Source of the DNA: a virus
Strand: one strand, 5' to 3'
DNA length: 52,981 nucleotides
Virus genome (UHGV): UHGV-1367038
The stretch's first letter is position 1. Each line of letters begins with the position of its first letter. Below, in pieces: positions 2,374-44,201 of the stretch. The position numbers were made by a program, and so were the translations under genes. Below the pieces are notes generated by a model that worked only from the letters and a program-made list of their open reading frames with translations, had not been told where the DNA came from and ran no database searches.

Positions 2374-4149
2374 ATGATTTACACAACAGGCACGATAGCC
2401 GTTAGCGGAAAAACAGTTACCGGAACGGGGACTGAATTCAACGCCGCATTATCTCTGATCAGAGTGGGTTGCACTCTTATTGCCATTAGTAATCCGGTGC
2501 AGATTTTCTCAATCACAGAGGTAAAAAGCGCGACAAGTTTGTCAGTAACTCCGGCAGCAAGCCCGGCAATTCCGGCTGGAACTAAATTTAGCATCCTGCT
2601 TTCAGATTCGATCTCTGTGGATGGTCTTGCTCAGGATGTTGCAGAAACACTGCGTTACTATCAGGGCAAGGAATCAGAAATAGCTGACGCCGTTGAATTT
2701 TTTAGCGACAACAAAGATGTGATTTCAGCCTCAAAATTAGCATCAGAATCAGCTACCACTGCAACCAATGCGGCAACAACAGCGACAACCGCCGCCAATT
2801 CAGCAAAGACATACAGAGACGAGGCCCACGAATACGCCAATCAGACGGCGCAGCCTTACGCGTATGTTTTGCAGCCGCTGCCGGACGTATGGATACCGTT
2901 TAATGATTCACTTGATATGCTCACTGGCTACGGCCCTGGCACTAAAAAAGTAACCATTGATGGTGAAGAAAAAACAATATCATCAGATAAGGTTGTTTCT
3001 TTCTCACGCGCAAGCACTGCGACCTATATCAATAAATCCGGTGTACTCACCACTGCTGATATTGATGAGCCGCGTTTCGAACGCGATGGATTATTAATCG
3101 AAGGCACACGCACAAATTACCTTACCAATTCTAATACGCCGACGTCGTGGAATGCTAACACAGGCGTCTTAGAATTAACTGAATCAGGGACGGATAGTTA
3201 CGGCTTTAATTATGGAACATTTACATGCACAGCAGATGCGGCATCAACAGCGACGTTAATTTCGACAGGCACATCAAGAGTAATAGCTACCGCATCCGGC
3301 GAATCAGTTACTATTTCCGGGCGCTTTAAGGGTACTGGCGTCCGCGCACGGGCGCGTATCTCAAAACTTAATGAAGATGGATCAGGTAATACATTCATTG
3401 CTGACGCGCTTTTGGATCTTGATACAAAAGTTTTAACGTACGCCGCTAATTATCTATCTGCTTACTTCGTTGATGAAGGAAACGGATGGCTTTTCTTTTC
3501 CACCACGTATACAGCAACCGAAGATATTGACGTCTACGCACGCTTTGAATTATCACCAAAAACCGGGGAAACATTAGCAATAGGCGACAGTATCACCATG
3601 ACCACGCCGCAGTATGAGTCTGGTTCTTGCGCATCATCGTTTATTGTATCAGGTGACAATCCAACCACACGAGCAAGCGACCTGGTAAGCATACCGACTA
3701 AGAATAACTTATTTAAGCCACCATTCAGTTTTTTACTTGAATTACATAAGGAATGGACAACAGCGCCAAACGCAGCACCTAGAGTATTTGATATTGCAAA
3801 CGCAAGCACAGGACAATCTATTATAGCTGCCATTAACAGAGGTAGCAGTAAATTTTACGTTTCCTTGTCTAACAGTTCTGGTGATTACATCAATTCTGCC
3901 GCTGATTCCGTATTGCCAAGTAAAGCCATTGTTGGTGCGGTAGCTAAAGGTGATGATACTTTTCACGCGATCATGGATGGTGTGGCCGTTGCAGATGCAA
4001 CATGTTCTTACGGTGGAGTAACTCAAGGCAAAAACATCAGATTCGGCGGTCAGGTAGCAGACGGAGCGCGCCACTTGTTCGGACATATAAGAAATTTTCG
4101 TATCTGGCACAAAGCATTAACTGATTCTCAATTAAGCGAAATTGTTTAA
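2374..4149 (+). CDS. Side tail fiber protein with C-terminal lectin/LamG-like domain
   Basis: 591 aa; GGAG RBS; N-terminal MIYTTGTIAVSGKTVTGTGTEF typical of enterobacterial phage tail fibers; Ala/Thr-rich shaft; position after J. Confidence 0.6.
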   Translation: MIYTTGTIAVSGKTVTGTGTEFNAALSLIRVGCTLIAISNPVQIFSITEVKSATSLSVTPAASPAIPAGTKFSILLSDSISVDGLAQDVAETLRYYQGKESEIADAVEFFSDNKDVISASKLASESATTATNAATTATTAANSAKTYRDEAHEYANQTAQPYAYVLQPLPDVWIPFNDSLDMLTGYGPGTKKVTIDGEEKTISSDKVVSFSRASTATYINKSGVLTTADIDEPRFERDGLLIEGTRTNYLTNSNTPTSWNANTGVLELTESGTDSYGFNYGTFTCTADAASTATLISTGTSRVIATASGESVTISGRFKGTGVRARARISKLNEDGSGNTFIADALLDLDTKVLTYAANYLSAYFVDEGNGWLFFSTTYTATEDIDVYARFELSPKTGETLAIGDSITMTTPQYESGSCASSFIVSGDNPTTRASDLVSIPTKNNLFKPPFSFLLELHKEWTTAPNAAPRVFDIANASTGQSIIAAINRGSSKFYVSLSNSSGDYINSAADSVLPSKAIVGAVAKGDDTFHAIMDGVAVADATCSYGGVTQGKNIRFGGQVADGARHLFGHIRNFRIWHKALTDSQLSEIV

Positions 4150-11520: not shown

Positions 11521-12513
11521 TCAAAGAGCGCCAGCGCGGGTGTCGCGTAGCGTTTTTGGTTTTAGTAAGAAATCTAGTGTCGCAGTGAAGCCATTGCCGA
11601 AGTAAAAATCTGAGGCCGTATTTTTGAACGCTTCGAAGTAGCTGATAAAGCCTTTGATGCTTTTATCTTTCAGGTAGTCAGAGAACGCATAAATTTTACG
11701 TTCCAGATCCCGATCAAGTTCAGCAGGTGGTAACAGGCCATCAAACGTGCTGTTAAATGCTTCCACTACGTCGGCGGCGTTTACGGTAGCTGATAGCTTG
11801 CGCCATTGTTCAGCATCAGCCAGATACCCATCGAATTTAGTTACCCGGCAAATGTTAATAGGCTTAGGCACTCCACCACGACTACGCCATTGAGTCAAAG
11901 CCCATTCAATTACTAATGTGATCTCATCCTCCGTATATGCCTTACGTGTTTTTGTTTCTGTCAGTAGTTCGATAAATGGTTTTGCGTCACGACATTTGCA
12001 TCCTGCCTTGTCGTTGTAGAAGGCTAGGCAACGCAATGCTGCCAAATTAGCCGCCTGATCTTCTTCGCTAATAGGCCCGTCTTTTTCCAATACACGGAGT
12101 GTATTGTTTTTAATGTTCTCTTTACTGGTTATATATGACTGATTAGGGTGTCTCTCTGACACTACCCCCGGTGTCACAGTGACACTACCCTGGTGTCTCT
12201 CTGACACTACCCCCGGTGTCTCTCTGACACTACCCTGTAATGATGGTAAGACGATTACATAGAAGTTACTTGTTTGCTCTTTTCCTCCTATTAGATATCG
12301 AGGTTGCTTAATCAATAACCCTTTCTCACAAAGAGCATCAATAGCCCGCATAGCTGTGCTTTTGCCTATTTCGCATTGCTTTGCTATGTGCTGGTAAGAA
12401 GGGTAACATTCGCCGTTATCGTTAGCGTTATCAGCCAACTTTAACAGCACAAGTTTGTGCATTGGGTTGCCGACTTCAGTATGAAAGACTTCAACCATTA
12501 GCCGCATACTCAT
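11521..12513 (-). CDS. Replication initiator (lambda O-like, N-terminal HTH) containing origin iterons
   Basis: HTH (SYQHIAKQCEIGKSTAMRAIDALCEKGLL); four iterons inside the ORF; AGGAGG RBS before ATG 12513 (alternative 12519; listed start 12561 is TTG). Confidence 0.7.
   Translation of the reverse strand: MSMRLMVEVFHTEVGNPMHKLVLLKLADNANDNGECYPSYQHIAKQCEIGKSTAMRAIDALCEKGLLIKQPRYLIGGKEQTSNFYVIVLPSLQGSVRETPGVVSERHQGSVTVTPGVVSERHPNQSYITSKENIKNNTLRVLEKDGPISEEDQAANLAALRCLAFYNDKAGCKCRDAKPFIELLTETKTRKAYTEDEITLVIEWALTQWRSRGGVPKPINICRVTKFDGYLADAEQWRKLSATVNAADVVEAFNSTFDGLLPPAELDRDLERKIYAFSDYLKDKSIKGFISYFEAFKNTASDFYFGNGFTATLDFLLKPKTLRDTRAGAL
12147..12236. repeat. Four tandem ~22-bp iterons (GGTGTCTCTCTGACACTACCCC), candidate replication origin
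   Basis: Direct repeats each containing a GTGTC..GACAC palindrome; AT-rich segment on the gene-downstream side; inside O-like gene. Confidence 0.7.
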
Positions 12514-12821
12514 AAACATTGGCCTCCTATGGTTAAAATGAACGCGCGGGCGGGTATCCAATTAGCATTAGATAGCGGTGAGTGACCGCTTAACAGATCC
12601 CGCCGTTGCGTGATATTTGTCTTTCGCTTCGCAGCGACACCGGATTTTTAAAGAGCATGAGGTATGCGCCTTTTTGTGCTATTCCGTTATCTTTTTTCTT
12701 GCGTCTTTGCAACTATGGCCTTACCTTGTCTGCAAGTTTACAGAATGGAGTTTTTAGATCAAGACTTGAAAAATACATTTTGTGACTTGTATCAAACTTT
12801 TTGAGGTTATAGGGTAGCGAC

Positions 12822-13469
12822 ATGAAAACAAAATGGTATGACTTAGCAAAGCAGCTCATGCGAGCGCAAGGCATGAGCCAGGATTCACTCGCGGATCTCA
12901 TGGGGATAACTAAAGGCGGCCTGTCACACTGGCTTAACGGTCGCCGCGAGCCAAATCTTGAAGATATTGCGCGGATTATGCGGGCACTTGGTCGTCGGCA
13001 GTTCACTGTTACCCATGATGGAATGGTCATTGATGATTCTGTTTCTAACACGTTACCGGGAGCGCCGCAGCGTGATTTAGGCAGTTACCCGGTTGTTGAC
13101 TGGAAGGACACAGTAAACAATATGGAAGATACAAGGCGATCAACATTACCACACGTTACGACTAGCGTTATTTGTTCAGATGATAGTTACTGGCTGGTTG
13201 CTAAAGGTGAATCAATGAACGCGCCGCAGGGGTTGAGCATCCCTGCCGGGACGATGATACTTGTTGACCCACACGCGCCAGCTATCGATGGAAAGCTGGT
13301 TATAGCACAGCTTGAGGAAGGGCAAATACCGACGTTTAAACAGTTGATTATTGATGGAGGTCAAAGGCTTTTACGTTCGCTTAACCCGCTGTATCCACCA
13401 ATCCCCATGAATCCTGAATCGAAAATCATAGGCGTGGTGGTGGACGCGAAGATCGTAAACCTGCCATAA
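12822..13469 (+). CDS. cI: CI-like repressor (HTH plus S24 LexA-like peptidase domain)
   Basis: 215 aa; N-terminal XRE HTH; C-terminal AKGESM serine motif; ATG 8 nt after a TATAGG -10-like hexamer (possibly leaderless). Confidence 0.85.
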   Translation: MKTKWYDLAKQLMRAQGMSQDSLADLMGITKGGLSHWLNGRREPNLEDIARIMRALGRRQFTVTHDGMVIDDSVSNTLPGAPQRDLGSYPVVDWKDTVNNMEDTRRSTLPHVTTSVICSDDSYWLVAKGESMNAPQGLSIPAGTMILVDPHAPAIDGKLVIAQLEEGQIPTFKQLIIDGGQRLLRSLNPLYPPIPMNPESKIIGVVVDAKIVNLP

Positions 13470-13475
13470 AAAATT

Positions 13476-13500
13476 AGCCGCCGAATGGCGGCTTTTCTTT
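13476..13500 (+). terminator. Rho-independent terminator after cI
   Basis: AGCCGCC-gaat-GGCGGCT then TTTCTTT. Confidence 0.7.
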
Positions 13501-13593
13501 GCCCTGAAAACACCAAAACGTAAACATAAAACGTGTTTTATTATTTAAATATCAATGACATATAAAATATTTTAAAAAAGTATACAAAATGGA

Positions 13594-13622
13594 TTGACTC
13601 GGTGTATCACGGGGCGTATATT
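13594..13622 (+). promoter_or_regulatory. pL-like sigma70 promoter
   Basis: TTGACT - 17 bp - TATATT; TATACAAAATGGA motif abuts the -35. Confidence 0.55.
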
Positions 13623-13664
13623 TCGAGGCAAAGGAGGTAGCAAGGCAGGGGAAAGAAGGTTACT

Positions 13665-13702
13665 TGCTCTTTAACAATCTGGTCAGCCGCTGGAAGTGCG
13701 GC
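13665..13702 (+). promoter_or_regulatory. nutL-like site: boxA-like TGCTCTTTAAC plus boxB-like hairpin GCCGC-tggaagt-GCGGC
   Basis: Between pL-like promoter and N-like gene, spacing as in lambda nut sites. Confidence 0.4.
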
Positions 13703-13758
13703 AATTAATGAAGATGATTTTTATTAAGTATCATCATGGGATATAAGGAGATCAGATT

Positions 13759-14049
13759 ATGACCGTAACAATTATGTATGGCAAATGTGATAGCAAAATA
13801 AATGCCAGGGAACGCAGAAGAATAAAAAGAGAAAACGAAAGAAAATCATCACCTGCAATCAATAAAACTGACAATGTTGATAAAGCTATTCGTTTTGCAA
13901 ACGTAGAAAGATGCAAACCGAATGGCATTAAAGAGCATCGCAAAGGTGCGGCAAAATGGTATGCGGAAAACGAAAGCGGCAATTACTACCACGCAACACA
14001 ACCGCGTAGTCTAGGGGAAAAACCCCTGGATAAAGTACGCTACAGATAA
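13759..14049 (+). CDS. N-like transcription antiterminator
   Basis: 96 aa basic protein; N-terminal MTVTIMYGK..INARERRRIKRENERK resembles the P22/lambda N arginine-rich motif; AAGGAG RBS; first gene after pL-like promoter. Confidence 0.55.
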   Translation: MTVTIMYGKCDSKINARERRRIKRENERKSSPAINKTDNVDKAIRFANVERCKPNGIKEHRKGAAKWYAENESGNYYHATQPRSLGEKPLDKVRYR

Positions 14050-14079
14050 TACAAAATGTAAACTTTCAAAGGTGACATT

Positions 14080-14202
14080 ATGGTTGTTCAGGCGCTTCAA
14101 TTCAAACTGGCTGTAGCGGAAATGCTTCACGATGCCGAAATGTGGAGCACCGCGAATAAAGCTTTATATGTAGTGTTAACAGCGAGGGAGATTAAAGGGT
14201 GA
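14080..14202 (+). CDS. Small hypothetical protein (40 aa)
   Basis: AAAGGTGA RBS; stop overlaps GTG start of erf. Confidence 0.35.
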   Translation: MVVQALQFKLAVAEMLHDAEMWSTANKALYVVLTAREIKG

Positions 14203-14840
14203 AAACAGAATTACATAAAAAGCTGTGGACTATTCAGCAGACGCTGAATGCGCCGAAAAGTCAGCGCAATAATTTTGGCGGTTATAATTATCGTTCGGCA
14301 GAAGATATTTTAGAGGCTGTTAAACCACTGCTTCAAAATATCACTCTGACGGTAAGTGATGAAATCGTCTTAATTGGCGAACGCTATTACGTGAAAGCTA
14401 CGGCGACACTAAGTGACGGTGAGGACGCGATAGCGGTAACTGCTTACGCAAGGGAGGAAGATAATAAGAAGGGAATGGATGCAAGCCAGCTAACAGGAGC
14501 AACATCAAGTTACGCGCGGAAATATGCTTTGAACGGTTTATTCTGCATAGACGATGCAAAAGACGCGGATACTGATGCTTACAGTAAGCAGACAGGCCAG
14601 CAGCCTAGACAGCAGAAAAACCAGCCAAAACAACAACAGCAGAAGCAGAAAGCGCCGCCAAATCCTGATGAAGTGTTAGCGCGTTTCTGTGATGCAGCAG
14701 CGAAAGCGCCGGACGCTAACAAGTTGCGTGAAATATTCGGTAAATGCTGGAAATTACTGCCGGAAGGATCGGAACATCGAGTTAAAGCAAAAGATGTTTA
14801 TGACATCCGGATCGCAGAGCTTAATGGGGAGATGAGCTAA
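14199..14840 (+). CDS. erf: ERF-family single-strand annealing protein
   Basis: 213 aa; NFGGYNYRSAEDILEAVKPLL typical of Erf; GTG start. Confidence 0.7.
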   Translation: MKTELHKKLWTIQQTLNAPKSQRNNFGGYNYRSAEDILEAVKPLLQNITLTVSDEIVLIGERYYVKATATLSDGEDAIAVTAYAREEDNKKGMDASQLTGATSSYARKYALNGLFCIDDAKDADTDAYSKQTGQQPRQQKNQPKQQQQKQKAPPNPDEVLARFCDAAAKAPDANKLREIFGKCWKLLPEGSEHRVKAKDVYDIRIAELNGEMS

Positions 14841-15289: not shown

Positions 15290-15782
15290 ACGATGTTTTA
15301 AATGTGGGGCATTATTGCCCCTTTCTTGTTTCTATAAAAATAAACAAATGGCTGATGGTCACGTAAATAAATGCAAGGAATGCACAAAACGAGATGTTAG
15401 AGATAATTACAGGAAAAATAGAGAATATTACAAGGAATATGACAGAATAAGAGATCAGTCGGAAGAAAGAAAGGAGATGAAAAGAAAGTATATTCAAACC
15501 GAAAAAGGCAAGGAAGCACATAAAAGATGTTGCGATAAATGGCAGGAAAATAACCAGAAGAAAAGACACGCTGAAATAATGGTAGGAAATGCCATCCGTG
15601 ATGGCAAGCTGGTCAAACAACCTTGCGAAGTATGCGGAAGAAGCGAACGCGTTCACGCTCACCATTGCGATTATGATAAGCCGTTAGACGTTATGTGGCT
15701 TTGTCCTATTTGCCATCGAGCGTGGCACAATGAGCATGGTGAAGGAGCCAACGCACATGACGAGGTGGTTAGCGATGGGTGA
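15261..15782 (+). CDS. HNH endonuclease with zinc-finger motifs
   Basis: CFKCG, CEVCG, HAHHCDYDKPLDVMWLCPICHRAWH; start at ATG 15261 inside SSB 3' end. Confidence 0.6.
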   Translation: MDDTESTRYKRCFKCGALLPLSCFYKNKQMADGHVNKCKECTKRDVRDNYRKNREYYKEYDRIRDQSEERKEMKRKYIQTEKGKEAHKRCCDKWQENNQKKRHAEIMVGNAIRDGKLVKQPCEVCGRSERVHAHHCDYDKPLDVMWLCPICHRAWHNEHGEGANAHDEVVSDG

Positions 15783-18547: not shown

Positions 18548-18740
18548 ACACTATAAAGAATGGAAAATTCCAGAATCAGCAACAAAGGCAGCGCCAGGAA
18601 ATTTTTCTGGAGTTTATTTTTATATGGATGGCAAATGGTATTTCGGCAGCAGGCCGGATCACTATTATCAGGAAATATGCAAGACGCACGTATGGGATAT
18701 TAAAGAGCGTGTGAAAGATGGGGTGATCGAGGACGTTTAA
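18537..18740 (+). CDS. Hypothetical protein
   Basis: 67 aa ORF. Confidence 0.45.
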   Translation: MKFKHYKEWKIPESATKAAPGNFSGVYFYMDGKWYFGSRPDHYYQEICKTHVWDIKERVKDGVIEDV

Positions 18741-20247: not shown

Positions 20248-20731
20248 CAGGTTATTAGCCTGCGTTTATGTCGCCGTTTTCGTTATCATCAATCTTATTG
20301 TTAATCACTGCGGCCCGTGGGTAATTCCGATCACCACGGTAGCCGCCGTGTATGTCAATATGATGATCCGTGACTTCCTGTTATATGACGGCGGCCTGAA
20401 ATGGTCGGCTACAACATGCGCCGCCGCTGGCGCAATCACGGTGCTGATAAACTACGATGCCGGAATGGTGGCGATTGCGTCATTCGTCGCGGTTGTTTCC
20501 GGTGCGCTTATTTCTGGCGGTGTTTACAGGATTTTACCTGGCGATTTCGACTCAAAACGCTGGCCTGCGAATATAGCGTCAGCCATTGGCGATTCGTTAA
20601 TTTTCCCCACGCTATCGTTTATGGCATTCATGCCGGAAATATCAGCTATGCAATTCATCTCAAAAATGGCAGCGGTAACGGTGATCACTATCATCATGCG
20701 CCGCTACTTTACATTCGAGGGTAGGAAATGA
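20228..20731 (+). CDS. Integral membrane protein; weak resemblance to YhhQ/DUF165 transporter family
   Basis: Multiple hydrophobic segments; RW...AS..G..D..F..F.AF pattern near C-terminus; family assignment is speculative. Confidence 0.5.
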   Translation: MERVMIDRLLACVYVAVFVIINLIVNHCGPWVIPITTVAAVYVNMMIRDFLLYDGGLKWSATTCAAAGAITVLINYDAGMVAIASFVAVVSGALISGGVYRILPGDFDSKRWPANIASAIGDSLIFPTLSFMAFMPEISAMQFISKMAAVTVITIIMRRYFTFEGRK

Positions 20732-21486
20732 GTGGGCTTAGAAATTGGGTGGTGTGGTCGCTGTACGACGGCAGCGGATACGCCGTTAAAGATTGGGCCG
20801 ACGCTGGTTATAAATGCTATTGCTTCAACTATGATGGCGCTAATCACGGCGATTATGAAGGCGTCAAAATCATTCATCCGAACATTGAGTATGTCAACGT
20901 ATGGATTGACAGCCATTTCCTGGTGATGTTCTCCCCTGAATTGTCTGTATATCCAGATCCTGACATTATTTTGGCCTTCCCGCCGTGCGACGATCTCGCT
21001 GTTTCCGGCGCTCGCTGGTTTGCTGATAAGCGGAAAAAAGATCCTCACTTTCAGGATAAGGCAGCGTATAACGCAAAACTGGTGGAAACGCTGGCTGACA
21101 TGTACCACGTGCCGTGGATGGTGGAAAATCCGGTGGGCGCACTGTCAACGTTATGGCGTAAACCGGATTTTATCTTTAATCCGTGCGCTTACGGTGGTTA
21201 TCTGCCTGAAGATGATGAACATCCATCTTTCCCGGATGTTTACCCTCCGCGCGACGCGTATACGAAGAAGACTTGTATCTGGTGTGGTAACGGATTTAAA
21301 CAGCCTCTTTTTAGACCTGTAGATCTTAACTCTGATGATAACCCTGGCTGGGCGAAAACAGGAGGCAGGACGAAAAGGACTAAGATGATCCGCTCGCTAA
21401 CGCCGCGTGGATTCGCCAGAGCTGTATTCCTGGCTAACGACCGGGCAATCACGAGGACTACTCTTAACCGCGTTTTACCGGATTGA
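20728..21486 (+). CDS. DNA cytosine-5 methyltransferase-like protein (short form)
   Basis: FPPCDDLAVSG resembles C5-MTase motif IV (PPCQxFSxAG); ENPVG resembles motif VI (ENV); DGSG motif I-like. Confidence 0.45.
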   Translation: MSGLRNWVVWSLYDGSGYAVKDWADAGYKCYCFNYDGANHGDYEGVKIIHPNIEYVNVWIDSHFLVMFSPELSVYPDPDIILAFPPCDDLAVSGARWFADKRKKDPHFQDKAAYNAKLVETLADMYHVPWMVENPVGALSTLWRKPDFIFNPCAYGGYLPEDDEHPSFPDVYPPRDAYTKKTCIWCGNGFKQPLFRPVDLNSDDNPGWAKTGGRTKRTKMIRSLTPRGFARAVFLANDRAITRTTLNRVLPD

Positions 21487-21508
21487 TGTTTACAAAATGG
21501 CGTCATTG

Positions 21509-21576
21509 TGTGATGAGGATCACATAATGGCGCTTTATTGCTTGTTCGCATGTATCCGTTTTGTATACTTCAAACA
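21509..21576 (+). promoter_or_regulatory. Conserved intergenic element: perfect CRP-consensus palindrome TGTGA-N6-TCACA plus ATCCGTTTTGTATAC block
   Basis: TGTGATGAGGATCACA at 21509..21524; homologous to 17941..18008. Confidence 0.5.
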
Positions 21577-21647
21577 AACAAAATGCTCTTTAAAAATCCG
21601 GTAACGCTGAAATGCGTAAAAATCACCTGAAAAAAGGAGAGAGCATT

Positions 21648-21824
21648 ATGCCTTTTGAGAATTACCAATGGCATGACGACTATGAGAGAGAAAGTGTCAT
21701 GCGTGCAATGTGCAATGTATGTAGCACTAAGAAAGGAGAATGTAACGAGTGCAACGAATGCGTAGATCGCTTGCTAAGGGCAGGACACGCCGAAAGGCTG
21801 AACGAAACAGAGAATCAAAAATAA
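21648..21824 (+). CDS. Small Cys-rich (zinc-finger-like) protein
   Basis: GGAGAG RBS; CNVCSTKKGECNECNEC. Confidence 0.5.
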   Translation: MPFENYQWHDDYERESVMRAMCNVCSTKKGECNECNECVDRLLRAGHAERLNETENQK

Positions 21825-21838
21825 TCGGGGTGGTTTTT

Positions 21839-22444
21839 ATGCAAAACCCTAAGAAACCAATAAGACGCCGTTGCAAATGCTGCGGCGTTTTTTTTGAGCC
21901 TAAATATCACAATCAGACGTGGTGCAGTGACGAATGCCTGGAAGAACTGAAGTTTGACCAGCTATGCCGCGACCGTGAGAAGGCTATGAAGGCAATGGAA
22001 CGGAAGAAACGCCGTGACAGCCAGCGGGAAGAACGCAACCGGAAGCGGAAACAGTTAAATCCGCGCAGCTACTGGCTGAAACAGGCGCAAGCGGTATTTA
22101 ATGCCTATATCCGCGAACGTGACGCGCGGTTACCGTGTATATCATGCGGCACTTACTACGGTGAGCAATGTTCATGGGATGCGGGCCATTATAGAACGGT
22201 CGCCGCCGCCGGACACCTTCGCTTCAATGAAGATAACGTCCACAAACAATGCAGACACTGCAACCAGACGTTAGACGGCAACATCGGAGGTTATCGCCAG
22301 GCGCTGATTAGAAAAATCGGCCTAGCCAGGGTGGTAGCACTGGAGAACAACAACGATACGCACAAATGGACGATCGAAGAATGTAAGGAGATCATAAAAG
22401 TTTATCAGGCGAAGTTGGACGCCTTAAGGAGAAAGGCAGCATGA
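21839..22444 (+). CDS. ninG: NinG/Rap recombination-associated protein
   Basis: Resembles lambda NinG (RRCKCCGVFF..LPCISCGT..WDAGHYRT..HKQCRHCNQ..WTIEECKEI); GGGGTGG RBS. Confidence 0.8.
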   Translation: MQNPKKPIRRRCKCCGVFFEPKYHNQTWCSDECLEELKFDQLCRDREKAMKAMERKKRRDSQREERNRKRKQLNPRSYWLKQAQAVFNAYIRERDARLPCISCGTYYGEQCSWDAGHYRTVAAAGHLRFNEDNVHKQCRHCNQTLDGNIGGYRQALIRKIGLARVVALENNNDTHKWTIEECKEIIKVYQAKLDALRRKAA

Positions 22445-22848: not shown

Positions 22849-23027
22849 AAAACGAAATTAAAGATCTGCAAATTGATATTCAGCGCGACGAGCGTGATTT
22901 AGAAACGGTCAGACAAATCCAGGCTTTCCACATGCGAGAATTACTCGCGCTAAAAGAGTTTGAAAGGAAGTTAGTGCAAGCTATTTCTGATCGCAAACGC
23001 CTTGTTGCTCGTTACGGGGGCAAATAA
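22845..23027 (+). CDS. Hypothetical protein
   Basis: 60 aa ORF, coupled. Confidence 0.45.
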   Translation: MKNEIKDLQIDIQRDERDLETVRQIQAFHMRELLALKEFERKLVQAISDRKRLVARYGGK

Positions 23028-23755
23028 TGAATTTAGAGTCAATTCTAAAATTCCACTTTCCTAAATCGCCGCGATTATCAGACGAAAGCCGTGGTACATC
23101 CCCTGATGCGCTTAATACTACTGATGCGCTTACCGCAGCTGGTATGGCGCAATCTCGCGTAGAGCTTGGATATAGCGCTTTTTTGGGAAAGATGGAGCTA
23201 TCGCAAGCCGAAAAACACAGGGCCGTAGTTTTGCTTACAGAGCGTTTAAGAGCTATGGCAAAAGATTACGAATACGTCATGGAACTGGACGAGGAAAAGC
23301 GCAATGATTTTATTATTCTTGTTGCCGTTTTCGCGTTTCGGGATTACTGCCAGAGTGCAGCGACCGAAAAAGTTTGCCCTAAGTGCTGCGGTCACGGGCA
23401 TTTACCAAATCAATATTGCAAATACACATCAACAATTTGCGCACGGTGCGGCGGCAAAGGCTACGTTAAAAACCATTGCCAGCGGTGCAAGGGCCGTGGC
23501 GAAGTACCGGATAAAGCAGCCAGCGAGGCAGCGGAAATGCCAGTTTTCAGAACGTGCCAGCATTGCGGCGGGCGCGGGTACTCGCGTTTCCCTGTAGATC
23601 TTGTCCGGCAGGCGGTTAATCAGCTTGTTTTTCCGGTAAGCCGATCAACATGGTGGAAGAAATACAGGGTTTTCTATGAGGACGCCATAGCTGAGCTATT
23701 CAAAGAAGAAGCCCGCGCGGAAAGCGAAATCAAGCGAGTGACGAGAGGTGAATAA
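23027..23755 (+). CDS. Putative late-gene regulator (Q-like antiterminator candidate) with DnaJ-type CxxCxGxG zinc fingers
   Basis: CPKCCGHGH, CARCGGKGY, CQRCKGRGE, CQHCGGRGY; position after NinG-RusA as in lambdoid phages. Confidence 0.4.
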   Translation: MNLESILKFHFPKSPRLSDESRGTSPDALNTTDALTAAGMAQSRVELGYSAFLGKMELSQAEKHRAVVLLTERLRAMAKDYEYVMELDEEKRNDFIILVAVFAFRDYCQSAATEKVCPKCCGHGHLPNQYCKYTSTICARCGGKGYVKNHCQRCKGRGEVPDKAASEAAEMPVFRTCQHCGGRGYSRFPVDLVRQAVNQLVFPVSRSTWWKKYRVFYEDAIAELFKEEARAESEIKRVTRGE

Positions 23756-27544: not shown

Positions 27545-27763
27545 ATGATTTTAACGTGTAATAGATCGGAATTAGGTTGTTTTGAGGAAGGCGTACAGTA
27601 TGCGGCTGAAAAACCGATGGGGTTGTCTCCTAAATTCCCGTTCATCGTCGTGACTGACACTTACGGTCACTTATGGTACGCAGAGCCGCTGTGCGGTATT
27701 GGTCGTTATGTTGTCCGTAGCTCTGACGGTGCGATGAAGGTTAATTTTACGGAAGAAACATAA
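27545..27763 (+). CDS. Small protein, paralog family member 4
   Basis: TCNRSELGCFEEGVQY ... DTYGHLWYA. Confidence 0.5.
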   Translation: MILTCNRSELGCFEEGVQYAAEKPMGLSPKFPFIVVTDTYGHLWYAEPLCGIGRYVVRSSDGAMKVNFTEET

Positions 27764-27782
27764 ATGTGATCTACCCCGCAAA

Positions 27783-27826
27783 GTTTACAAAATGGCATTG
27801 TTCCGGCAGTGCCATTTTGTTATAAA
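27783..27826 (+). promoter_or_regulatory. Conserved inverted-repeat element ACAAAATGGCA-N12-TGCCATTTTGT followed by TATAAA
   Basis: Homologous to elements at 44124..44166 and 47170..47217. Confidence 0.45.
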
Positions 27827-27861
27827 GAAGCTGAAGAGAGAACGATGCGGAGGGTAGAAAA

Positions 27862-43951: not shown

Positions 43952-44123
43952 TTTCTTATCCTCTTTTGCTTCCTCCGGTTTATCCGGCCTTTTAAAATCC
44001 TTTTCCTGCTTCCTTAGTTTTAGGGGATTTCGCCTCCCTCGTTCCTTCGGTTAGCTGGGCTTCAAGTCTCAATCCTTTATATCCTTCGACCTTCTTTTCC
44101 CTCTCTCATCCTTCACCTTCTTT

Positions 44124-44166
44124 ATACAAAATGGAGTCGTTGAAGTGAAGCCATTTTGTATAAAAT
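44124..44166 (+). promoter_or_regulatory. Conserved inverted-repeat element TACAAAATGG-N16-CCATTTTGTA followed by TATAAAAT
   Basis: Near-identical to 47170..47217; lies between moron cassette 1 and tape measure gene. Confidence 0.5.
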
Positions 44167-44201
44167 AGAGACGTAGATCACATTTTGTATGAGGTTAAAT
44201 C

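Follow-up and report, generated by a model that had tools for sequence, protein, structure and literature searches.

We analysed a stretch of viral DNA of 52,981 nucleotides (nt), UHGV-1367038, referred to below as the window, in which a reading of the sequence alone had flagged positions 13476-14049 for an early promoter, a nut site and an N-like antiterminator gene downstream of a cI-type repressor gene. The flagged region is the start of the main early operon of a phage or prophage of the mEpimmI group (coliphages mEp021 and relatives). We consider it highly probable that the first gene product of this operon, an ortholog of mEp021 Gp17, mediates N-like antitermination at three nut sites, named nutR1, nutL and nutR2 after their mEp021 counterparts.

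An ortholog of mEp021 Gp17 in the mEp021 gene order

The gene in question (13759..14049, plus strand) is preceded by an AAGGAG Shine-Dalgarno sequence and encodes a protein of 96 amino acids (aa) that is 93.7% identical to mEp021 Gp17 (mEp021_17) over residues 1-95 (93% in a second alignment), within the same gene order. The earlier proposal of an N-like antiterminator is thus upheld, with the protein now recognized as a Gp17 ortholog. In mEp021, early antitermination is reported to be carried out by Gp17, an N-lambda-like protein (Valencia-Toxqui et al. 2023, as summarised in PMC11893012), and terminator read-through is reported to require the protein, boxB and host Nus factors (PMC11893012). 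The same source places Gp17 in all 48 mEpimmI genomes, with R17, R19, R20 and R24 fully conserved.

As had been noted from the translation, the window protein is basic with an Arg-rich N-terminus (isoelectric point 10.05; 24 lysines and arginines against 12 aspartates and glutamates). Six arginines (17, 19, 20, 21, 24 and 28) fall within residues 17-28, in a motif that spans approximately residues 15-29. Across 19 family members, N15, A16, R17, R20 and R24 were invariant and R19 and R21 were at least 90% conserved. The most conserved part of the family is a C-terminal block, W67-Y95, which, if lambda N is a guide, may make contact with RNA polymerase or with Nus factors. An AlphaFold model contained helices at residues 16-30 and 37-51 and was otherwise of low confidence (mean predicted local distance difference test score of 56), which is compatible with a largely disordered N-like protein.

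The strongest sequence support came from PHROG 271, 'anti-termination protein N-like', which residues 2-95 matched with an E-value (E) of 1.9e-10, and the same PHROG is matched by lambda N (4e-23) and P22 gp24 (7e-40). Sub-threshold matches to Pfam N_peptide (PF25694), which is the P22 gp24 family and on which gp24 itself scores 152 bits, were obtained with 17 of the 19 Gp17 family members (best E 4.8e-4). The window protein did not match Pfam N36, and NCBIfam returned only a weak, meaningless match. The Gp17 family is narrow, its named members (60-99% identity) all being labelled E. coli or Caudoviricetes. A tblastn search of 50,697 phage records (E <=10) recovered only seven mEp-type phages and neither P22 nor lambda, and a scan of genome contigs for relatives confirmed none. 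Forty-two IMG/VR contigs carry a Gp17-type protein, at 67-100% identity.

The surrounding DNA leads to the same assignment. Window positions 12500-14250 share 89-90% nt identity, at 97-99% coverage, with phages mEp013, mEp044, mEp554, mEp021, mEp010 and mEp515, and a further 24 kilobases of the window are approximately 85% identical to the same six phages (84-90% identity and 73-99% coverage overall). Both the window and mEp021 have the order repressor, terminator, promoter, nut, gp17, kil-like gene, erf and ssb. The mEpimmI group has been described as Nus-dependent yet non-lambdoid (PMC11893012). The Gp17/three-nut system is already known, from mEp021 and 47 related genomes, and the window adds only minor variation to it. 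The main value of the present analysis lies in annotation: databases label the Gp17 family 'hypothetical protein' (as GenBank does mEp021_17 itself), though the mEp021 ortholog has a published function. In the window an N-like antiterminator, three nut sites, the early promoter and the relevant terminators can be annotated.

The early promoter and three boxA/boxB units

The repressor (cI-like) gene (12822-13469; HTH_3 and Peptidase_S24 domains) is followed, as the sequence-only reading had it, by an intrinsic terminator (13476..13500, plus strand). It consists of a bidirectional hairpin, AGCCGCC-GAAT-GGCGGCT (13476-13493; 7 pairs, 6 of them GC; folding free energy (dG) -13.8, z-score (z) -3.6), and then a T tract. 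This terminator is the counterpart of TERM_1 in MH706966 and was found in 41 related loci. The promoter claimed beyond it, TTGACT and TATATT with a 17-nt spacer (13594..13622, plus strand), is likewise present, downstream of an A/T-rich stretch, and also occurs in mEp021. It is predicted from a match to 10 of the 12 consensus positions, and a consensus scan for promoter-like sites gave no excess by itself (5 vs. 4.2 in shuffles). When 44 sequences (the window and 43 related loci) were compared, both hexamers and the 17-nt spacing were invariant in 42, over 11 variants of the spacer sequence. Invariant hexamers over variable spacers are the pattern expected of a functional promoter.

Between this promoter and nutR1, mEp021 and 32 other loci carry a segment of approximately 213 nt with a 37-aa open reading frame (ORF), gp16. 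The segment is missing from the window (13623-13664, compared with 3599-3854 in locus L001) and from 8 other loci, so that boxB lies 62-63 nt from the -10 hexamer, vs. approximately 275 nt in the carriers. When the two divergent promoter regions were searched for common repeats, nothing emerged beyond the inverted repeat of boxA/spacer and one direct repeat of 16 nt (12828, 13584), and no operator was definable from these.

The mEp021 nut sites have been located by their neighbouring genes: nutR1 precedes gp17, nutL precedes the repressor gene and nutR2 follows the cytosine methyltransferase gene (PMC11893012). The window holds three boxA/boxB units at these relative positions, each co-oriented with its operon. 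The first contains the boxA-like 11-nt core TGCTCTTTAAC (13665..13675) that had been pointed out in the sequence-only reading and that extends to the 13-mer TGCTCTTTAACAA (13665..13677, plus strand). This 13-mer matches the E. coli rrn boxA consensus at 13/13 positions; most relatives, mEp021 included, have CGCTCATTAACAA in its place. After an 8-nt spacer, UCUGGUCA, comes the boxB stem-loop GCCGC-UGGAAGU-GCGGC (13686..13702), which was also part of the earlier claim and which folding returned as the minimum-free-energy structure (-10.1 kcal/mol). The hairpin is identical in 41 of 43 sequences, again including mEp021, while L046, the relative furthest removed (67% protein identity), carries GCAC-UGAAAU-GUGC there instead. 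The promoter and this site had been called pL-like and nutL-like. The gp17 operon mixes content typical of lambda pL (N, kil, recombination) with content typical of lambda pR (nin genes, Q), and the label is a fair local analogy but not the published naming, in which the site is nutR1.

The second unit, nutL (12624..12657, minus strand), includes the second boxA of the sequence-only reading. That boxA, TGCTCTTTAAAAA, is exact and occupies the published nutL position, although it lies at 12657..12645, approximately 2 nt from where it had been put (about 12647..12659), and the boxB that follows it had been missed. The spacer is UCCGGUG and the hairpin UCGCU-GCGA-AGCGA (12637..12624); nutL is conserved in the related loci, with the loop variants GCGA, GUGA and GCAA. 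The third unit, nutR2 (21584..21617, plus strand), had been overlooked altogether. It is flanked by the methyltransferase gene on one side and by the nin-like and Q-like genes on the other, and comprises the same boxA, TGCTCTTTAAAAA (21584-21596), the spacer UCCGGUA and the hairpin ACGC-UGAAAU-GCGU (21604-21617). The outer stem pair of nutR2 is A-U in the window and G-U in mEp021, and among the relatives it is A-U, G-U or C-G, with one U·U mismatch. Twenty identical nt, AUGCUCUUUAAAAAUCCGGU, are shared by nutL and nutR2, which fits a published remark that these two nut sites are the most alike.

The window has four exact copies of the 10-mer TGCTCTTTAA, three of them followed after 7-8 nt by a GC-rich hairpin. 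The fourth (13928-13937, minus strand) is antisense within gp17, without a hairpin, and was rejected as a nut site. A composite motif, defined as a boxA with at most one mismatch and a GC-rich hairpin 6-15 nt downstream, was found at 5 sites vs. 1.43 in shuffles; the three sites with an exact boxA are those at the nut positions of the literature, and at the two extra ones, both within genes' coding regions, boxA has a mismatch. Further boxA-like sites at 18700-18709 (minus strand), 3321 (plus strand) and 19272 (minus strand) were also discarded, as they are within coding sequence and have no convincing hairpin or are on the wrong strand.

The boxB stems vary in a manner that maintains pairing. 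In a gap-free alignment of 18 distinct sequences (nutL, nutR2 and the nutR1 of L046) over a four-pair stem, the outer pair takes five standard forms (UA, GU, AU, CG and GC) and the third pair changes once from GC to AU. The resulting covariation score was reached by none of 500 shuffles, and pairing was seen in 88% of cells in the boxB stem compared to 32-56% in slid controls. A fifth stem position (U26 with N31) pairs in nutL only. Loop length is 7 nt in nutR1 (UGGAAGU), 4 nt in nutL (GCGA, with a closing U-A pair) and 6 nt in nutR2 (UGAAAU), and none of the loops is a GNRA-like pentaloop. However, every loop variant holds a GNRA tetranucleotide (GGAA, GCGA, GUGA, GCAA or GAAA). A GNRA-type fold is known for the boxB of lambda and of P22, and by analogy a similar fold is plausible for the loops described here. 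Searches of Rfam returned nothing at gathering thresholds and only chance-level matches at E <=5.

The fold predicted for the gp17 leader RNA (z -2.56) contains a further pairing. In it the boxA-boxB spacer segment AAUCUGGUC (13676-13684) pairs with GAUCAGAUU (13750-13758), enclosing boxB; GAUCAGAUU starts at the final Shine-Dalgarno base and stops immediately ahead of the gp17 AUG. Eight of the nine pairs are kept in mEp021, and no covariation was seen in this pairing. The pairing may occlude the gp17 start and so exert translational control over the N-like gene, in a manner reminiscent of the lambda N leader.

Proposed antitermination and competing explanations

The arrangement described above suggests the following sequence of events. 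When repressor is absent, sigma-70 RNA polymerase would start at the TTGACT-17-TATATT promoter and transcribe the nutR1 boxA, the boxB hairpin and then the first gene, that of the Gp17 ortholog. The Arg-rich N-terminal helix of Gp17 would bind the boxB hairpins of the emerging transcript, host NusB/NusE would be recruited by the neighbouring boxA together with NusA and NusG, and the complex would stay on the elongating polymerase, allowing intrinsic terminators to be read through. On the divergent replication operon nutL would serve in the same way, as would nutR2 before the nin-like genes, and passage of the strong terminator after nutR2 would permit expression of the Q-like late regulator. 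Both the details of these RNA-protein contacts and the set of terminators overridden in this genome are as we infer them.

Several observations weigh against this interpretation. The evidence for antitermination comes from the mEp021 ortholog and not from this genome, and the match to the published nut sites consists of gene-relative positions and the description of an 'A-rich boxB loop'. The window protein scores 16.4 bits on N_peptide, below the cut-off of 27.9, and a search of the PDB with the family profile gave 0 matches; no N-peptide structure was retrieved. The similarity to classical N proteins, which had been read into the N-terminus, is weak. A family profile aligned by hhalign with P22 gp24 in the Arg-rich N-terminus (I-YGK, NA[KR]-RR) and in a DxVxKAI motif (E 0.0036, at a probability of only 9%), but with lambda N in a WY motif alone (probability 2%). 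The three boxB loops are unlike each other and unlike the lambda pentaloop, and the short hairpins have z of -0.2 to -1.8, so their energies alone are not significant. Finally, the covariation of the boxB stems reflects few independent events among closely related genomes and is therefore supportive rather than decisive.

Some of these points would also suit antitermination of the host type, as in the rrn operons, in which NusB/NusE (with SuhB, NusA and NusG) act at boxA with no phage protein, the hairpins being incidental and the 96-aa protein doing something else. The rrn-type nutR1 boxA, a better match to the consensus than lambda's own boxA, and the differences among the three boxB loops speak for such a mechanism. 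However, most relatives have a degenerate nutR1 boxA (CGCTCATTAACAA or CCATTCTTTAACAA) together with an invariant hairpin, the hairpin stems covary, and Gp17 is reported to be required for early antitermination in mEp021 (PMC11893012). We regard action at boxA alone as very unlikely.

Slightly less probable still is that the protein is an exclusion factor like Nun, one that binds boxB-type hairpins of other phages or its own and provokes termination or arrest. Phage HK022 provides the precedent, as its Nun protein has an N-like Arg-rich motif and sits at the N position, and sequence alone cannot separate an N-like from a Nun-like protein. The highly conserved W67-Y95 block, without an assigned function, also counts in favour. 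Nevertheless, the cognate nut sites of the window front the phage's own essential operons and terminators, where a termination-inducing factor would be self-defeating in lytic growth. The gene also stands behind a promoter just past the repressor-gene terminator and is presumably silent in a prophage, and the ortholog has been reported as an antiterminator (PMC11893012).

The least probable explanation is a chance association of an unrelated small basic protein with coincidental boxA sequences and hairpins. It draws on the shortness of the motifs, a promoter scan near the chance count, the weak hairpin z and the ability of single-sequence searches to give spurious matches of similar strength (MESH1/HDDC3 in the PDB, E 0.003), but that match vanished with the family profile, and chance is effectively refuted by the PHROG match, the identity to Gp17, the conservation and covariation across 44 loci, and the three co-oriented boxA-plus-hairpin units at operon starts, compared with the 1.43 expected even when a mismatch is tolerated. 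Taken together, the three alternatives leave little room beside N-like antitermination by the Gp17 ortholog.

Antitermination through Gp17 and three nut sites can be set beside the known systems. The mEp021 system (Valencia-Toxqui et al. 2023; Negrete-Mendez et al. 2025, PMC11893012) is the closest, with a 96-aa protein bearing the same conserved arginines and with the same flanking genes: repressor, kil-like, erf, ssb, methyltransferase, ninF/ninG, rusA and Q. The left replication module of the window differs, since mEp021 has a separate 81-aa helix-turn-helix gene and a 332-aa gene there. P22 gp24 has an N-terminus of the same type, MTVxxxYGK...NA(K/R)xRR, and the central DxVxKAI; its gene, like gp17, is the first after the early promoter beside the repressor gene, and P22 nut has a boxA of the type GCTCTTTAAC followed after approximately 9 nt by a 5-bp, GC-rich boxB. 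In contrast, identity to gp24 is approximately 36% over 33 residues only, the two proteins are unrelated in their C-terminal halves, P22 boxB carries the pentaloop GACAA, and P22 has two nut sites rather than three.

With lambda N the window protein shares small size, basic charge, a largely disordered character and an N-terminal Arg-rich motif, but no detectable pairwise similarity beyond the short WY motif. The regulatory logic is common to both: boxA and boxB follow the early promoter, N is followed by kil and recombination genes, and for the mEp group Nus dependence is stated in PMC11893012. Unlike in lambda, the N gene, nin-like genes and Q are on one operon with two nut sites, the replication genes are on the opposite operon, and the boxB loops are not the lambda pentaloops GAAAA/GAAGA. 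Four features, all of them already in the literature, make the mEpimmI group useful as a natural variation on the lambda paradigm: three nut sites, non-pentaloop boxB loops with GNRA tetranucleotides, N and Q on one operon, and a nutR1 boxA equal to the rrn consensus.

Operon layout, candidate promoters and repeated elements

The rightward operon (plus strand) begins with the early promoter, nutR1, gp17, a Kil-like ORF, Erf, SSB, a terminator and accessory genes. It continues with a DNA methyltransferase gene (20728-21486), a 16-bp hairpin (21499-21534), nutR2 and a NinF-like ORF (21648-21824), followed by a terminator in the 5' end of the NinG-like gene, a RusA-like gene and a Q-like antiterminator gene (23027-23755). 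The leftward operon (minus strand) comprises a candidate promoter (12762-12735), nutL, an O-like initiator gene with internal iterons, an exonuclease gene, a DnaB-like helicase gene and a terminator-like hairpin (8453-8425). Directly after gp17, the 40-aa ORF (14080-14202, plus strand) scored below threshold against Pfam Lambda_Kil (21.4 bits vs. a cut-off of 27.6; E 1.7e-4) and matched PHROG 34942. It is a predicted Kil-like inhibitor of host septation, and its place relative to the neighbouring genes is also that of the P22 and lambda counterparts.

The first predicted intrinsic terminator downstream of gp17 follows ssb (15306..15331, plus strand; 6 pairs, 5 of them GC; dG -12.2, z -3.1). 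A stronger one is predicted approximately 300 nt after nutR2 (21862..21895, plus strand; dG -18.7, z -4.3), with a run of 8 T. This terminator lies within the NinG-like coding sequence, at the codons for RRRCKCCGVFFEP, an intragenic placement at the 5' end that is unusual, and each of the 43 nutR2-bearing sequences has both the hairpin and its T run. A polymerase modified at nutR2 would probably have to get past this terminator en route to the Q-like gene, and Gp17 would act on it through that site.

The hairpin that follows the methyltransferase gene (21499-21534, plus strand; dG -24.2, z -6.2) corresponds to TERM_4 of MH706966 and is followed by a weak T tract, TTATTGCTTG. It contains TGTGA-N6-TCACA, which resembles the CRP consensus, and among related loci its arms are conserved and the N6 is variable. 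The element may terminate transcription, bind a protein or do both.

Candidate promoters were also noted upstream of the other two nut sites. The predicted leftward early promoter (12735..12762, minus strand) has TTGATC (12762..12757), a 16-nt spacer and TAAACT (12740..12735), with 8 of 12 consensus matches, which is below the scan threshold. The candidate upstream of nutR2 (21542-21569, plus strand), just after the hairpin at 21499-21534, has TTGTTC, a 16-nt spacer and TATACT. In approximately 40 related loci (34 distinct nutR2 and 22 distinct nutL sequences) the hexamers of both candidates are conserved and the 5' part of the spacer is variable. Both share a conserved block proximal to the -10 hexamer, CC(A/G)TT(C/T)TGTA(A/T)ACT, and the -10 region upstream of nutR2, ATCCGTTTTGTATACT, resembles that of the leftward candidate, CTCCATTCTGTAAACT. 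It is conceivable, but rather doubtful, that nutR2 has its own promoter and so is more than another point of loading along the long transcript of gp17; no description of such a promoter was found in the sources consulted on the mEp021 group. If it does, the window would have three promoter-nut units tied by a shared protein-binding or promoter motif.

The ATCCGTTTTGTATACT region is an inverted copy of a 15-mer, GTATACAAAATGGAT, that adjoins the -35 hexamer of the gp17 promoter (13580-13594). At up to 3 mismatches the 15-mer has 20 matches in the genome vs. 2.2 expected (at most 7 in 100 shuffles), with copies at, for example, 9910, 12736, 17986, 21488, 21554, 27783, 44122, 44149, 47167 and 47264, and its core ACAAAATG occurs 18 times vs. 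4.05 expected. Many of the copies are intergenic, and a few are explained by an A-rich spacer with an ATG start codon or by coding sequence. The repeat may act as an operator, as a site for a regulator or as part of a promoter.

A different set of repeats lies within the O-like gene (11521-12519, minus strand), where four direct repeats of approximately 20 nt at 12140-12236 follow the pattern GTGTCTCTCTGACACTACCC with some variation. They resemble origin iterons, such as those in lambda O.

Finally, the late region contains two related palindromic elements of approximately 70 nt in opposite orientation (27762-27830 and 44120-44195), which read AATGTGATCTAC ... T(T/A)TACAAAATGGC ... CCATTTTGT(T/A)ATAAAGAAG. 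Given this layout, each element has two copies of the ACAAAATG core, inverted relative to one another and separated by 18 nt. The AAATGTGATCTA in these elements equals one half of the CRP consensus.

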